In this document: in pieces, positions 15,010 through 41,246 of the stretch
Position numbering within the stretch: the stretch's first letter is position 1
How the letters are laid out: the number at the start of each line of letters is the position of its first letter
Origin: Patescibacteria group bacterium
Lineage (GTDB): Bacteria; Patescibacteriota; Gracilibacteria; UBA1369; PNNO01
Length of the DNA: 64,000 nt
Direction: 5' to 3'
Assembly: GCA_042568575.1 (NCBI GenBank)
Contig: JBHPIO010000001.1
Location: 162,285 to 226,284, forward strand
The notes under the pieces: generated by a model
What the model was told of the DNA's origin: nothing
The model's input: only the letters and a program-made list of their open reading frames with translations
Database searches by the model: none
Translations under genes and position numbers: made by a program

Positions 15010-15787
15010 ATGCCTACAGAAGCAACAAAAACTAAAATCAACGACAAGAGTGTTCGTCAGGCCAAAAAATCACCTGCAGCAAGCACCCAAACATATTTAA
15101 AGATAGCTGAAATTAGAGACGATACAGTTGTACTCAAAAACGGAGGAATTCGTTCTGTATTGAAAGTTTCGAGTGTAAATTTCAGCTTAAAATCAGAAGA
15201 AGAGCAAAACGCTATTATTTACTCATACCAAGGGTTTTTAAACTCTTTGGAGTTCCCAATTCAAATACTTATACAATCAAAAAAGCTAGATATAGACAAT
15301 TATATTGATCATCTTAGCGATCTTGGAGAAAAAACAAACCAATACACTTCTACAGCAACAGACATACGAATATATGGATTACATCCAAAGACTTGTTGAA
15401 TACGCTGATATCATGGAAAAAGCGTTCTACGTAATAATCCCGATGGATACTTTCCGATCAACAAAACCTTCATTCATTCAACGTTTCTTTCAAAACATGT
15501 CGCCGAAAGACACATATTCAGAACTACAAAAACGGCACAAAGAATTTGCACAGCTCAAAAAAACCCTAAACCAGCGCACTACAACTGTTAAAGCAGGGCT
15601 GGAAAGCGCAGGGCTAAAGGTAGATCAACTTAAAACTAAAGATCTTATTGAACTCTTCTACGAAATCTACAACCCAATGAGTTCACGTAATCAAAAAGTT
15701 GACGAGATTGAAAAGATAGACATTAAAACCGACAAAGACGTTCTTTCAGAAGCGGAACGGAATAAAATTGGTAACGACGAAGAGTAA
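15010..15787 (+). pseudogene. PrgI-associated (TraC/VirB4 N-terminal-like) protein split by a frameshift at A6 15329-15334
   Basis: ORFs 15010-15399 and 15305-15787 join as ...DLGEK/QTNTLLQQQTYEY... if one A is removed. Confidence 0.65.
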
Positions 15788-15825
15788 CCTATTGGTTGTA
15801 GGTTCGAACCCCACGGCCCCCACCA
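15785..15825 (+). pseudogene. tRNA 3' half (positions 36-76), att-like remnant
   Basis: TAA-CCTAT-TGGTT-GTAGG-TTCGAAC-CCCAC-GGCCCCC-A-CCA; exact tRNA spacing, one T-stem mismatch, no 5' half. Confidence 0.75.
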
Positions 15826-15833
15826 TACTTGTG

Positions 15834-15861
15834 AAATCTCAACCCAGGTTGAGATTTTTTT
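15834..15861 (+). terminator. Intrinsic terminator after tRNA fragment
   Basis: AAATCTCAACC/GGTTGAGATTT stem followed by T run. Confidence 0.8.
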
Positions 15862-15875
15862 ATACACTTAAAACC

Positions 15876-16033
15876 GTGAACAAAATCTTTTTGAGCCCGC
15901 GTAGTGTTTTTTCTGCGGGTCTCGTGGGCCCCGCAGGCAAAAAAACACGAGCCTTTGCGAAAAACAATTTCGTTCACAACCTTATGAGGAAAGGGGTTCC
16001 CAAAAGGGGGAAACCAGGGGTGTCCCCCTTTTG
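15876..16033. repeat. Long imperfect palindrome (15876-15977) plus GC-rich hairpin (16001-16033; likely 23S-5S terminator)
   Basis: GTGAAC...GTGTTTTTTCTGCGGG/CCCGCAGGCAAAAAAACAC...GTTCAC; CAAAAGGGGGA/TCCCCCTTTTG. Confidence 0.6.
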
Positions 16034-16052
16034 AATATGCTAAAAACCACTA

Positions 16053-16168
16053 TCTTGGCAGCGCCCTACTCTCCCACAACTCATGCTGCAGTACCATCGG
16101 CGAAGAGTGGCTTAACTTCTGTGTTCGGGATGGGAACAGGTGTACCCCACTCTCAAGAGCTACCAAGA
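16053..16168 (-). rRNA. rrf: 5S rRNA
   Basis: CCCATCCCGAACAC, GCCGATGGTACTGC, GAGAGTAGG on minus strand; complementary ends. Confidence 0.95.
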
Positions 16169-16315
16169 CAGTGGCTTTTAAAGCTACTGTCTAAAATTGA
16201 CATGTTATTTCCACAAATTGCTAGTCTTAGCACTAATTTAGTGCCGGTACTAAATCCCTAAAAAATATGGGGACTTAGCACCAACACCGCCGTGCTAAAA
16301 AATACGTTTTAAATA

Positions 16316-19304
<2,989 letters not shown>

Positions 19305-19351
19305 ATTTTTATATTAAAACGTACATATCACGTCAGCGAACTGACATGATT

Positions 19352-19375
19352 GACTAGCAATTCGTAAAAATAACA
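19352..19375 (-). other. 5' arm of 23S processing stem (pairs with 16203-16226)
   Basis: UGUUAUUUUUACGAAUUGCUAGUC pairs over 24 bp (including G-U) with GACUAGCAAUUUGUGGAAAUAACA. Confidence 0.85.
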
Positions 19376-19429
19376 ACGAATCACTAGATTTTTATTACAA
19401 AGTGTTCAATTTGTGGTTATAAACTCTAA

Positions 19430-19442
19430 TTTTCAAGGATCA
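19430..19442 (-). promoter_or_regulatory. boxA-like antitermination element of 23S leader
   Basis: TGATCCTTGAAAA resembles rrn boxA TGTTCTTTGAAAA/TGCTCTTTAACA. Confidence 0.6.
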
Positions 19443-19452
19443 ACTTCATGCG

Positions 19453-19484
19453 AAAAAAAAAGTGTGTACTTGGCGCACACACTC
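19453..19484 (-). terminator. Intrinsic terminator inside the 23S leader
   Basis: AGUGUGUGC-GCCAA-GUACACAC followed by U9. Confidence 0.8.
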
Positions 19485-19508
19485 TCAAACCTAAATAAAC
19501 GCGAGGCT

Positions 19509-19550
19509 TTACGTCTTCAAGCTTAAGAGTATGTACGGATTTTTGCGCAT
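19509..19550 (-). CDS. Putative 23S leader peptide MRKNPYILLSLKT
   Basis: ATG about 27 nt after predicted TSS in a T-rich context; covers the 5' arm of the antiterminator; TAA lies at its loop. Confidence 0.5.
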   Translation of the reverse strand: MRKNPYILLSLKT

Positions 19551-19583
19551 AAAAAAGCTACTTTTTAGCAATTTAGTGTACCG

Positions 19584-19612
19584 ATTATAAAGAATCGAAA
19601 ATCCAAAGTCAA
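19584..19612 (-). promoter_or_regulatory. Dedicated 23S-5S promoter TTGACT-N17-TATAAT
   Basis: -35 at 19612-19607, -10 at 19589-19584. Confidence 0.85.
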
Positions 19613-19636
19613 CTAATTTTTTACTTTTTTTAGACT

Positions 19637-19885
19637 TTAGTTACCTGGGGATAAAATAGGGCCAAACAAACCACTTAATACAGACTGAACCGTTCCGGTA
19701 ATATACATCAATGTAGCGAAAAAAAGTCCAATTCCAATAAGGACGAATAAAGTATACGTTCCACCCGACCCTAAATACTTTTCTGCAAAACCAATATCGC
19801 CGGTGAAATTCTTCAACTTAGACCTATATATAATGATGAGAAATGAAAGTGGAAATCCAATAAGCGCAAAAATGACTTTATTCAT
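19637..19885 (-). CDS. Small two-TM membrane protein
   Basis: Two hydrophobic helices around FTGDIGFAEKYLGSGGTY. Confidence 0.75.
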   Translation of the reverse strand: MNKVIFALIGFPLSFLIIIYRSKLKNFTGDIGFAEKYLGSGGTYTLFVLIGIGLFFATLMYITGTVQSVLSGLFGPILSPGN

Positions 19886-19930
19886 GACAAAATTATTAAC
19901 CAGCTAAATACTATGGAGTATTGTAGCATA

Positions 19931-20500
19931 TTAATAATTACTTCCCAGCGGGGTTATATTATCTACTTCATTCTCGCCAACCATTTTATCCAATTTTTTC
20001 CATAACTTTCTACAAGTCTTGCGTCTTTCATGCGAGATCTTGAGATTTCTTTGATTCTTATTAGCTTCACTTTGAGCGCCTAATAAGAATTTTTCGTATC
20101 TTTTACATGCTTTTTGTCCATCTTGTTGAGTCCCTAAATCTAAAAGCCCTTCGCTTTGACGTTGATCAGTCCAAGATTTTCTTTTTTCTACACAATCATC
20201 TTCTAAACTTTTTTGGTGCTTGAGAAATTTTTTCGCATTATCCTCCTCATAACAACCTTGGGAATAAGTAACCAAGTCCGGAGTCTTCTTCTCTTTCTTA
20301 CAACCTCCAGCAGCTCCAACAGCAGCACCTAGACCTAATGCTCCAAGGATGCCAAGAACTCTATTATTATACCAATGCCTCATCCTCCCAGGTTCTGCTT
20401 TAGGAGTAGGATCATCTATTTCAGATATAATTCCATCAATAAATTCATCACTATATCTTTCGGTTTCTGAACCTGTTTGTCCGCTAGTTGATTCACTCAT
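19931..20500 (-). CDS. Hypothetical protein with internal TM/lipobox-like GAAGGC and Cys-containing helical C-terminus
   Basis: Start at ATG 20500 (MSESTSGQ); upstream TTGACA-N17-TATAAA. Confidence 0.7.
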   Translation of the reverse strand: MSESTSGQTGSETERYSDEFIDGIISEIDDPTPKAEPGRMRHWYNNRVLGILGALGLGAAVGAAGGCKKEKKTPDLVTYSQGCYEEDNAKKFLKHQKSLEDDCVEKRKSWTDQRQSEGLLDLGTQQDGQKACKRYEKFLLGAQSEANKNQRNLKISHERRKTCRKLWKKLDKMVGENEVDNITPLGSNY

Positions 20501-32521: not shown

Positions 32522-32598
32522 TGGTGGGCTTGCGTGGACTTGAACCACGGGCCTCGTCGTTATCAGCGACGCGCTCTAACCAGCTGAGCTACAAGCCC
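32522..32598 (-). tRNA. tRNA-Ile(GAT)
   Basis: GGGCTTGTAGCTCAGCTGGTTAGAGCGCGTCGCT-GAT-AACGACG...GTTCAAGTCCACGCAAGCCCACCA. Confidence 0.97.
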
Positions 32599-34744: not shown

Positions 34745-37519
34745 ATGATTCCTCTCTCCAAAATTATAAAAAAAGCGTCATACTTAAATAGCAAGGAGGC
34801 CGATCTAGTAGAGAAGGCATATAATTTTGCAAAGAAAAACCATAAAGGACAAGAAAGGAAATCAGGAGAACCATATTTCAATCATCCAATCCGTACTGCA
34901 TTAATACTTACTGAATACAATGCAGACGTAGAAAGCATTTGTGCCGCACTTTTGCATGACGCGCTGGAAGACACGGAAGCTTCTTTTGACGATATTAAGA
35001 AGCTTTGCGGCGAAGAGATTGCCAATCTGGTCGCAGGAGTAACTAAGTTCGGAGAAGAGCATTTCAGGGGCAATAATCACCTTGAAAGAAAAATCGAGAC
35101 ACTGAGAAAGCTTTTCACTGTTATGGAAAAAGACATTAGAGTTATTATCATCAAACTCTGTGACCGATTAGATAACATGAAGACTCTAGACGCCTTATCT
35201 GAAGATAAACAAATAGCATTCGCTAAAGAAACCTTAAAAGTTTATGTGAAAATTGCAGATAGATTATGTATGCAAAGAATGAGAAATGAACTTGAAACAC
35301 TCTGTACCTATTACCTAGATAGAGATCAATACACGAAGTTCTTAGTTGCAAAAAAGAATGGACTCGCAAATAAGAAACTTATAAAGTCAGTTAATGATAG
35401 TTTAAAAGAGAAAGATAGAGAAGATATAATAACAAAAATTAGATTCGTCCCAATAGAGATGTGTGATTTTAAAGAAGGAACCTACGGCAAAAAAGATTAT
35501 TTTTGTACTGTTACAACTAAATCAATTGAAGACTGCTATAAAGCGGTTTTTTATGTTCATAGTTTGTGGGAAAGCATTAGAACTTCATTCAACGATTTCA
35601 TTAATCGTCCTAAAATTAATGGGCATAAAGCATTATATTCAAAAGTACTAACAAGCAAGGAAAGAAGCATCTATTTTAGAATCAGTACACAGGAATGGGA
35701 AACATATTATGTTAACGGTATAACTACGTACTGTTTCTCAAAAAATGATAAAGGAATTAAAGGGCAAAAGGGTCTCGACTGGATTAAAAATCTCAAAGAA
35801 ATTAATAAAAAAACGCAAGGACATAGCGATTCATACTGGAAAGGTCTTCAGAACGATATATTGAAAAACACAATTCTGATTTACGGAAAAAATGATGAAG
35901 GAATAATTCTACCTGAAAACGCAACTGCCCTTGATGCTGCATTCTATATGCACAAGGAAAAAACACTGTTTCTAGACGAGATATCCGTTAATAACAAGCC
36001 GGTACCGTTATTCCATAAACTCAGTAATAATGACATAATAAAATGCACTTTCGACACAAAAGAAACAGCTCATTATCAGTGGTTTAACCATATAGAAACA
36101 ATAATCGCAAAAGGATTTATACAAGATTTCCTTCACAAAAAAGAAAAAGAAAAGAAGATTAAGATTGGGAAAGAGCTTTTGCAAAAGGAATTTATAAAAC
36201 ATCAGAAAGGATTCGTTAATGAGGTGTCCACTTCTGAAATTACGCGCGTCCTTAGCTTAAGTGAAGCCTCTTCATTAGAAAAACTATATGGCTCTATTGG
36301 CGAAGGAAAAATTACTCCAGAAGAAGGTTTTATTTATTTCTTTCCTTATGAGGATAAAAAGAAGAAAAAATCGAGTCACAAAATTACTGTAACTCTTCGC
36401 AAAGATTCAATGCTAGATGTAATCGCACTCTTTCCGAATACACCTGACACAAGAATCAGGTTCTCGGACTGCAATACTAAAGGAATAACGAATCTTACAG
36501 CAAATGTGTACCTTCATTCCGACTTAACGCTCAAAGATCTAATTAAGGGCATTCAAAGAGTTGATGGAGTTGAGTCTGTTAAGGATGAAAACATAACAGA
36601 AAAAAGAAAAGCCAATATTTATACAGGCCTCCTCGCCTTTCTGTGGGGATTAGACCCGATCCTCGCATATTTATTGCTTAAAACAGGAATATCACCTCTT
36701 CCATTTACGGCATTAAGATTTTTCACAGTAGCGATATTTCTTGGAATTGTTGTTCTACTCTCAATGAAAAAAATAAAAAAACAATCACGGTTCTCCATGT
36801 GGCGTATTTCATTCGGATTATCAGTAGTATTCTTGATTGCCACCGCATATGCCACCTACTATTCACTCTCAAACACCTTCCCGTCAAACTATCTTTTAAT
36901 ATTACATTTATCAATATTACTTACGTTTATATTCGATTCAGTAAAAAGAAATATTAAAAAAATATTCAGCAAAAATTCTATTTTAAATATATCTTTATTA
37001 GCTTTCGGCATATTGTTGTTTCTTTACTTCAACAAAGCAAGCATTACTACAACTGCAACGCTTTTGCTCGTTCCAGTAATATTTTCAGCTTACACATTAA
37101 GCACAGAAAAATATTGTAAGACAGAAAACATTAAAGCCAGGCAGACAATGATGATTTTCCTCTTTCATGTTATTGGAGCAATACTATTGTCCCCCTTTAT
37201 ATTCACACTCTCTTTGTCGTTTTCGTTTTATCAATACATTTTATTAGCTGCCTTTTTTACTATATTTTGTGGCATATCGTACCTTTTGTACTCTGCAAAA
37301 GTGCAAGAAATAAGCAACTATATTCTTCTCTCAATTTTTATATTCATTGGAATTGCCGATCTGATTGTGGAATCATTCTTTGTACCAATGCATGTGACAC
37401 TTCTAAAACTCCTATACGTAGTAGTAATAGATACAGGTATTTTCTATGCAATATTCAAAAAAACATCATCTGAAAAGAAAGAATACAATCTTGTTTCTCA
37501 GATAATATTAAGACGATGA
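34745..37519 (+). CDS. RelA/SpoT homologue (HD hydrolase, degenerate synthetase, TGS, ACT-like) fused to C-terminal EamA/DMT transporter
   Basis: HKGQERKSGEPYFNHP, LLHDALEDT, IKLCDRLDNMKTL; LPENATALDAAF (TGS); from about 36617 roughly 10 TMs starting LAFLWG...FTALRF. Confidence 0.85.
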   Translation: MIPLSKIIKKASYLNSKEADLVEKAYNFAKKNHKGQERKSGEPYFNHPIRTALILTEYNADVESICAALLHDALEDTEASFDDIKKLCGEEIANLVAGVTKFGEEHFRGNNHLERKIETLRKLFTVMEKDIRVIIIKLCDRLDNMKTLDALSEDKQIAFAKETLKVYVKIADRLCMQRMRNELETLCTYYLDRDQYTKFLVAKKNGLANKKLIKSVNDSLKEKDREDIITKIRFVPIEMCDFKEGTYGKKDYFCTVTTKSIEDCYKAVFYVHSLWESIRTSFNDFINRPKINGHKALYSKVLTSKERSIYFRISTQEWETYYVNGITTYCFSKNDKGIKGQKGLDWIKNLKEINKKTQGHSDSYWKGLQNDILKNTILIYGKNDEGIILPENATALDAAFYMHKEKTLFLDEISVNNKPVPLFHKLSNNDIIKCTFDTKETAHYQWFNHIETIIAKGFIQDFLHKKEKEKKIKIGKELLQKEFIKHQKGFVNEVSTSEITRVLSLSEASSLEKLYGSIGEGKITPEEGFIYFFPYEDKKKKKSSHKITVTLRKDSMLDVIALFPNTPDTRIRFSDCNTKGITNLTANVYLHSDLTLKDLIKGIQRVDGVESVKDENITEKRKANIYTGLLAFLWGLDPILAYLLLKTGISPLPFTALRFFTVAIFLGIVVLLSMKKIKKQSRFSMWRISFGLSVVFLIATAYATYYSLSNTFPSNYLLILHLSILLTFIFDSVKRNIKKIFSKNSILNISLLAFGILLFLYFNKASITTTATLLLVPVIFSAYTLSTEKYCKTENIKARQTMMIFLFHVIGAILLSPFIFTLSLSFSFYQYILLAAFFTIFCGISYLLYSAKVQEISNYILLSIFIFIGIADLIVESFFVPMHVTLLKLLYVVVIDTGIFYAIFKKTSSEKKEYNLVSQIILRR

Positions 37520-39086: not shown

Positions 39087-39163
39087 TGGTGGAGCAGAGG
39101 GGAGTCGAACCCCTGACCTCCCGCGTGCAAGGCGGGCGCTCTAGCCAACTGAGCTACTGCCCC
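39087..39163 (-). tRNA. tRNA-Ala(TGC)
   Basis: GGGGCAG...CCCGCCT-TGC-ACGCGGG...CTGCTCCACCA with G3-U70. Confidence 0.97.

Positions 39164-39780: not shown

Positions 39781-41246
<1,466 letters not shown>

Follow-up and report, generated by a model that had tools for sequence, protein, structure and literature searches.

A stretch of 64,000 nt from the genome of a Patescibacteria group bacterium (contig JBHPIO010000001.1, positions 162,285 to 226,284), here referred to as the window, carries on its minus strand the genes for 16S, 23S, and 5S ribosomal RNA (rRNA). In the leader of the 23S-5S transcript it contains a candidate ribosome-dependent transcription attenuator, i.e., a short upstream open reading frame (uORF) and two hairpins that compete for one strand. 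The source genome (G000) is a metagenome-assembled genome of the Candidate Phyla Radiation (CPR), with an assembly of 1.2 Mb that is 82% complete and has 38% G+C. The 16S gene sits 22 kb away from the 23S gene, so the two are unlinked and 23S-5S is a stand-alone unit, as had been claimed in an earlier reading of the window that was made by a model from the letters and their translated open reading frames (ORFs) only (the sequence-only reading). In relatives that have both genes on one contig, these share a strand, with 16S at 3-51 kb upstream of 23S. For Patescibacteria, separation of the rRNA genes has been reported before (10.1101/705046). The rRNA genes and the leader elements of the window are as follows:

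16312..19305, minus strand: 23S rRNA (RF02541, 2622 bits), the gene under the proposed control
16053..16167, minus strand: 5S rRNA (RF00001, 90 bits), in the same unit, 3' of 23S
39783..41246, minus strand: 16S rRNA, 22 kb upstream of 23S
19584..19612, minus strand: promoter-like site of the sigma-70 type, TTGACT-17-TATAAT, with 11/12 consensus matches (called by consensus match only)
19551..19569, minus strand: 4-bp hairpin GCUA..UAGC followed by U6, directly 5' of the ATG, from the minimum-energy fold
19509..19550, minus strand: uORF MRKNPYILLSLKT*, 13 codons plus TAA, from translation of the sequence
19537-19511 (5' arm), 19510-19503 (loop), and 19502-19474 (3' arm), minus strand: antiterminator hairpin of 27 pairs, from folding
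19453..19486, minus strand: terminator-like hairpin of 12 pairs at 19486-19458 (-14.4 kcal/mol; 5' arm 19485-19475, loop 19474-19470, 3' arm 19469-19459), then T9 at 19461-19453
19448..19457, minus strand: AUG-hiding strand UUUUUCGCAU, once read through a possible partner of AUGCGCAAAAA (19550-19540), and paired in the fold
19426..19441, minus strand: boxA-like motif GATCCTTGAAAATTAG, directly after the terminator-like element

The promoter, the uORF, the long hairpin of about 27 bp, the terminator with its U9, and the boxA-like motif are all present where the sequence-only reading had located them. The label boxA for GATCCTTGAAAATTAG is our assumption, made from similarity. The 5' arm of the antiterminator hairpin begins 14 nt past the A of the uORF ATG, in agreement with the earlier estimate, and the folds bear out that the 3' arm of the long hairpin doubles as a terminator arm: the terminator 5' arm is the base of the antiterminator 3' arm and is thus the strand common to both structures. 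The antiterminator hairpin is the minimum-energy fold of 19580-19440 (-45.3 kcal/mol, z = -5.18), with 1/200 shuffles folding equally well, and the hairpin alone has -30.6 kcal/mol. The folds show no pairing between the 5' arm and the 4-bp hairpin that precedes the ATG; small hairpins like the latter were found by eye in leaders of family f1. Concerning the earlier proposal that the AUG is hidden again after read-through, the pairing of UUUUUCGCAU with AUGCGCAAAAA does occur in the window fold, but this stem is not conserved outside the genus, a partner being found in only 2 of 9 f1 leaders read by eye, both from the genus of the window (the other being L003).

Searching the leader against Rfam gave no family at the gathering score, the best match below it reaching 20.5 bits where 50 would be needed (E up to 10). 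The site at 19612-19584 is the best of 9 promoter-like sites in 15500-20500, where 8.0 are expected, and the region has 5 terminator-like sites versus 4.5 in shuffles, i.e., both are at chance level. A single sequence is therefore insufficient for a claim, whereas the conservation in relatives exceeds chance.

Among 205 genomes of the order, the 5' end of 23S was obtained in 120, and all 120 leaders were analysed. An equivalent promoter site (score 9.5-12.5 in our own scan) heads each of them. A strong terminator call (hairpin energy of -9 kcal/mol or lower, followed by a T-run) was obtained ahead of boxA in 93/120 leaders, and in 92 of these 93 a longer upstream hairpin of -15 to -43 kcal/mol, folded from the transcript made ahead of the terminator 3' arm, competes with the terminator by consuming its 5' arm. 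Directly after the T-run, the alignment of the 23S leaders has the boxA-like consensus GTTCnTTGAAAATT; a related motif is also present in 16S leaders.

The two helices were assessed in a MAFFT alignment (A3) of 90 of the 92 modules, from which two leaders of family f8 had been dropped for their long inserts. In the lower helix of the antiterminator (19 pairs), 90.9% of the cells are paired and 17/19 pairs change on both sides; none of 500 shuffles reached the observed values, and slid controls were 28-56% paired. The terminator helix (10 pairs) has 88.7% of its cells paired, with 10/10 pairs changing on both sides and again 0/500 shuffles; here, two-column slides score fairly high because of a GU repeat. 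RNAalifold run without an input structure also predicts the antiterminator helix, with 17 pairs of which 15 have compensatory changes. Moreover, the common strand shows three-way covariation, namely, C-G-C 40 versus T-A-T 18, A-T-A 40 versus G-C-G 17, and C-G-C 27 versus T-A-T 20. The common strand thus covaries with both partners at once; the two helices exclude each other and yet both are kept, as is characteristic of a switch. Judged from this covariation, both helices are under selection.

The 92 leaders with both helices were folded with the 5' arm free and with it blocked. In the unconstrained fold the terminator is present in just 6/92 leaders, while blocking of the 5' arm lets it form in 89/92, and a median of 5.5 kcal/mol separates the terminator state from the minimum below it. 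According to these folding models, the switch energetically rests in the read-through state.

The uORF is conserved in a manner that fits this structure. In 64/92 modules, representing 9 of the 13 module-bearing families, an ATG precedes the 5' arm by 8-30 nt, and in family f1 the ATG, the 13 codons, and the stop are preserved in 9/9 leaders (the 27/120 leaders without a strong terminator call are left out of the uORF statistics). In 64/64 of these uORFs the first in-frame stop comes once the arm has begun, always within arm or loop, and leaves 13 nt or more to the terminator arm, compared to 30/64 and 28/64 in the two other frames; likewise, the stop is at most 9 nt away from the apical loop in 57/64 uORFs versus 1/64 and 10/64 in the control frames. 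The stop codons TAA (22), TAG (21), and TGA (21) are used about equally, indicating that it is the stop function that is conserved and not its letters. The uORFs are 7-21 codons long (mode 13) and make up 19 distinct family-by-length solutions, and the pattern is therefore not that of a single ancestral frame passed on free of indels. By eye, a genus of family f7 has a premature TAG at codon 8 and a sense codon at the usual stop position in 3/3 leaders, reflecting one evolutionary event. The peptides differ between families, and the apparent conservation of ..LSLKT sits in the paired arm, so the position of the ribosome would matter and not the peptide. Comparison of the leaders thus establishes, at the level of sequence, two exclusive helices with a conserved start, frame, and stop position, and, as described below, their limitation to 23S leaders.

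The spacing of these elements is also well defined. The ATG lies a median 33.5 nt from the predicted start site, a median 15 nt (10-26) before the arm, and a median 90 nt before the T-run, and the distance from the stop to the terminator arm has a median of 28 nt (23-46) and is never less than 23. A ribosome has a footprint of roughly 15 nt on either side of the P site. Together with the geometry, this means that an initiation complex would barely reach the arm and that an elongating ribosome would unwind it; a ribosome at the stop would cover the upper arm and the loop and never the terminator. The earlier proposal that only an elongating ribosome melts the arm is consistent with this spacing, i.e., with the median of 15 nt between ATG and arm and the at least 23 nt between stop and terminator.

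Initiation at the uORF would have to proceed without a Shine-Dalgarno (SD) site. In the 20 nt before the uORF ATGs there is 12% G, SD-like tetramers occur in 3/64, and at least 6 A are found within the first 12 nt after the ATG in 32/64 uORFs. In G000, GGAGG occurs in 7/878 regions upstream of long ORFs, and the share of G falls to 9-14% at -16..-1. These gene starts are crude (the first ATG of long ORFs), and mis-set starts would dilute a G-rich signal and would not create the depletion. As the genes of G000 lack SD sites too, a uORF without one is normal here. It was also observed that the 3' end of the G000 16S rRNA retains the CCUCC anti-SD sequence despite the genes having no SD signal.

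From these data we infer that the uORF is translated and that transcription can end at the hairpin plus U-run, and, with these, the sign of the response and the physiological variable that is read. Specifically, it is proposed, with a probability of about 0.65, that the start of the 23S-5S transcript is a ribosome-dependent (leader-peptide) transcription attenuator in which translation of the uORF favours termination. RNA polymerase would start at the TTGACT/TATAAT promoter and transcribe the ATG about 30 nt on, followed by the long hairpin, the 5' arm of which corresponds to codons 5-13 of the 13-codon uORF. In the absence of a ribosome, the more stable long hairpin would fold first and block the terminator, and the polymerase would continue through boxA into 23S and 5S. 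A ribosome that is elongating in the uORF, or is positioned at the stop in the loop, would hold the 5' arm; the common strand would then pair with the terminator 3' arm, and transcription would end at the U-run. Translation capacity would in this way exert negative feedback on the synthesis of large-subunit rRNA. The core of the sequence-only reading, a translation-sensing attenuator with read-through as its default, has held up in each comparative test that this reading itself had set, including those of both exclusive stems, while translation and termination themselves are deduced from sequence. A search for sequencing runs gave DNA runs of the contig only (share 0.22 or less) and none of RNA.

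The proposed logic corresponds to the 2:3/3:4 half of a trp-type attenuator. Like the attenuators of the trpL/hisL/leuL type, the 23S module has a promoter-proximal short ORF and an antiterminator and an intrinsic terminator with a common strand, and a ribosome over the 5' strand of the antiterminator would free the terminator to fold. For trpL, which encodes a leader peptide of 14 amino acids, efficient translation leads to termination, as described in 10.1101/606483. The differences are that the uORFs of the 23S leaders have no regulatory codon run and no repeated codon class across families, that the module has three segments, not four, with no 1:2 protector/pause helix, and that the regulated gene is an rRNA and not an mRNA. 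Because the protector helix is absent, an untranslated leader would give read-through and not super-attenuation.

Similarities also exist with the rrn antitermination leaders (boxB-boxA-boxC with Nus factors), namely, a strong promoter, then a boxA-like motif with a hairpin immediately 5' of it, and after these a processing stem and the rRNA, and the 16S leader of the window has this simple form. However, the hairpin of the 23S leaders is followed by 5-10 U, is opposed by a longer competing helix, and is preceded by a uORF. To our knowledge, neither a U-run nor a competing helix nor a uORF is part of the rrn antitermination system. In erm-type leaders and the topAI-yjhQ uORF (PMC12121999), the state of the translation machinery is likewise read by the position of the ribosome on a short ORF; these systems respond to ribosomes stalled at specific codons and usually switch the gene on, whereas in the 23S module ordinary elongation would turn off an rRNA gene.

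Two further systems are alike in part. In the autogenous attenuation of the S10 operon by L4, a ribosome component exerts feedback at a leader terminator, and the effect is mediated by a protein and requires no uORF. The outcome at the pyrBI attenuator depends on the distance between ribosome and polymerase, with a close ribosome preventing termination, i.e., with the opposite sign to the 23S module. A full-text search of open-access papers and preprints yielded no leader-peptide attenuator on any rRNA gene, in line with the sequence-only reading, which knew of none. The attenuator reading is well supported by the sequence comparison, and the leader, if so read, represents a known type of regulator on a class of genes for which none had been described.

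The module is not confined to the order. A covariance model of it gave one match in G000, and in a sample of 151 genomes of the class it matched 27, of which 18 are outside the order. Of these 18 matches, 15 show the terminator together with a competing helix, and 14 are situated 280-430 nt upstream of a 23S 5' end. In the other orders the ATG is at the expected distance in 14/15, and the stop is rightly placed in 14/14 versus 0/14 and 3/14 in the control frames. In a sample of the phylum (151 genomes, i.e., 150 besides G000, 143 of them from other classes), searched with the stricter filters of Infernal, no match was found outside the class. Conservation of the AUG, the frame, the stop position, and the covariation of both stems, which had been suggested as a check, is therefore seen across the order and in further orders of the class.

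Equally, the module is limited to 23S leaders. In the 16S leaders of G000 and 20 relatives, a strong hairpin plus T-run before boxA occurs in 0/21, and the sole call of -9 kcal/mol or stronger in these leaders adjoins the 5' end of 16S; the 16S leader of the window has only a short hairpin, without a T-run and without a uORF. The sequence-only reading, which had seen no such element there, was right on this point. The module is absent from 16/120 23S leaders, which are short, and in these genomes 16S and 23S are still unlinked where both genes can be placed. By eye, the 27 leaders without a strong call comprise 12 with a hairpin and a weak or no T-run and 15 that are short and without the module; G030 is a further short leader, with a spurious terminator call and no competing helix. 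As judged from these sequences, the module is lost several times in the order.

Several observations weigh against the proposed attenuator. The absence of the module from 16/120 leaders means that it is dispensable. Relatedness among the sequences inflates the raw counts as a measure of independent events, for which the 19 family-by-length classes give the safer number. An ATG at 8-30 nt from the arm is missing from 28/92 modules; 16 of these 28 offer a TTG whose frame ends in a stop near the apex (the control frames give 3 and 7), chiefly in families f4 and f15, and about 8-12 leaders keep the switch without a convincing uORF (e.g., G176, G192, G152, G049, G050, and G029), while G170 has CTG where its relatives have ATG. 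Conservation of the peptide was rejected as evidence, ..LSLKT being largely forced by base pairing. In some leaders (G079, G102, G031, G183, and others) the hairpin is kept and the T-run is absent or broken, and the terminator hairpin occupies the site where the boxB hairpin would be in an rrn leader. Hairpin plus T-run signals are found in G000 downstream of 17/300 genes, on the antisense strand in 8/300, and mid-ORF in 3/300, which is a modest enrichment after genes. Lastly, the presence of RelA/SpoT-domain genes means that conventional control of rRNA may also operate: there are three PF04607 matches, on the window at ~35510-35722 (plus strand; 28 bits, just above the cut-off) and on G000 contigs C29 and C30, so that (p)ppGpp (guanosine penta- or tetraphosphate) metabolism is probably present in G000. 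A lineage without RelA/SpoT, considered as a rationale for the module, was rejected on account of these three matches.

These observations bear on the alternatives, which are, in descending order of likelihood, a factor acting in trans, a boxB-like or pause element, and an incidental ORF. A real two-state switch might be flipped by a ribosomal or other RNA-binding protein, or by a small RNA, that binds the 5' arm or the long hairpin as a whole, with a uORF that is untranslated or accessory. The 8-12 of 92 modules that retain both helices without a convincing start, together with the CTG of G170, are what such a switch would allow; the helix sequences are also unusually conserved (GGGUGUG-type arms), as a protein site might be, and protein-mediated attenuation of ribosomal operons exists, as in the L4/S10 leader. 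A trans factor would, however, leave unexplained why stops are placed in a frame-specific manner both in the order (64/64 versus 30/64 and 28/64) and in the other orders (14/14 versus 0/14 and 3/14), why TAA, TAG, and TGA interchange, and why the ATG is preserved amid diverging flanks. This explanation is considered unlikely.

Alternatively, the uORF may be translated with an output other than termination. The hairpin plus U-run would then be a boxB-like or pause element, with the ribosome timing the folding of the leader in aid of a boxA antitermination complex or of pre-rRNA processing, and translation might even promote 23S synthesis. The position of the hairpin directly before boxA, where 16S leaders carry a short hairpin, would suit this, as would G079 and G102, which keep hairpin and uORF without a T-run, and the low frequency of intrinsic-terminator signals in G000 (17/300 after genes versus 3/300 inside). 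Yet in most modules the hairpin runs into at least 5 T, and a U-run combined with hairpin energies of -9 to -20 kcal/mol is the standard signal of an intrinsic terminator; 16S leaders also have boxA and have no U-run, competing helix, or uORF, and a constitutive boxB would need no competing helix. This possibility is regarded as slightly more remote than a trans factor. Finally, there may be no regulation at all, with the hairpins being structural in the pre-rRNA leader and the ORF a by-product of AT-rich sequence that was inherited without indels. An ORF of about 14 codons is indeed the chance expectation in AT-rich sequence, promoter- and terminator-like sites are no commoner in the region than in shuffles, and 16/120 genomes do without the module. 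Such an absence of regulation is nevertheless highly improbable, as it conflicts with the three-way covariation of a strand common to two exclusive helices, the ending of all 19 family-by-length ORF solutions in the same structural region, the failure of the control frames, and the conservation of the module across several orders.

If the leader is a leader-peptide attenuator, the variable that it senses could be free ribosomes generally, 50S subunits particularly, or the closeness of the first ribosome behind the polymerase. In the sequence-only reading it was suggested that the leader senses the availability of 50S and keeps the unlinked 16S and 23S balanced. On this view, surplus large (70S-forming) subunits would shut off 23S-5S transcription directly, a control that would replace the lost co-transcription of 16S and 23S. 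A 30S subunit at the ATG would stop about 15 nt short of the arm, and only subunit joining and elongation would melt the antiterminator. The one fact that agrees with 50S-specific sensing and 16S-23S balancing is the occurrence in 23S leaders only, and 16/120 leaders, from genomes still unlinked where both genes can be placed, are without the module; this more specific proposal is held to be doubtful.

The genes for rRNA are textbook untranslated genes, the control of which is thought to take place at the promoter, via ppGpp and initiating nucleoside triphosphates, and through Nus-factor antitermination. If the proposed attenuator is real, ribosomes would read their own precursor RNA and throttle its synthesis, giving a physical form to the old idea of ribosome feedback. 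CPR bacteria have so far not been cultured by themselves, and it would be among the few regulatory mechanisms described in them; it would also show how one rRNA is controlled separately where the rRNA genes are unlinked and initiation is not SD-led. Should 50S be the variable, an autogenous loop for large-subunit rRNA would be conserved through a whole CPR class.

Further features were noted around the rRNA genes. A gene of 82 codons for a predicted membrane protein (19637..19885, minus strand, from ORF translation) lies directly before the 23S promoter. A Pfam search with the 82-residue protein gave no match; R21, G29, E35, and GGT at 41-43 are invariant, and the gene is found directly before the 23S promoter at 23 loci of relatives across the order, in addition to the two loci of the window itself. 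The usual spacer tRNAs are likewise scattered between the unlinked rRNA genes of the window, with tRNA-Ala(UGC) closely 3' of 16S (39087-39163, minus strand) and tRNA-Ile(GAU) about 6.5 kb beyond it (32522-32598, minus strand). In two relatives a tRNA gene is located upstream of the 23S leader: at L146 in G111 the module is absent, and at L015 in G020 the tRNA gene is still followed by a promoter, a uORF, and a terminator that belong to the leader itself.

Regarding the ends of the uORFs, the last sense codon encodes Thr in 23/64 and Pro in 17/64 leaders of the order. A C-terminal proline slows peptide release and would prolong the dwell time of the ribosome at the loop; these codons belong to the paired arm and may hence be a structural by-product. 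Avoidance of TGA as a uORF stop in lineages that read TGA as glycine was also considered and was uninformative (n = 1, G265). In a check of LepA for recoding, no in-frame stop was present in 8/10 genomes, G216 had one TAG and one TAA, and G265 alone had an in-frame TGA; the uORF stop of G265 is TAA, and its order gave 1 match to the covariance model in 12 genomes. Downstream of the attenuator and separate from it, stretches of the leader that are complementary to the 23S-5S spacer were seen by eye (19352-19360 with 16218-16226, and 19298-19322 with ~16295-16312, minus strand), which would make up the usual 23S processing stem.

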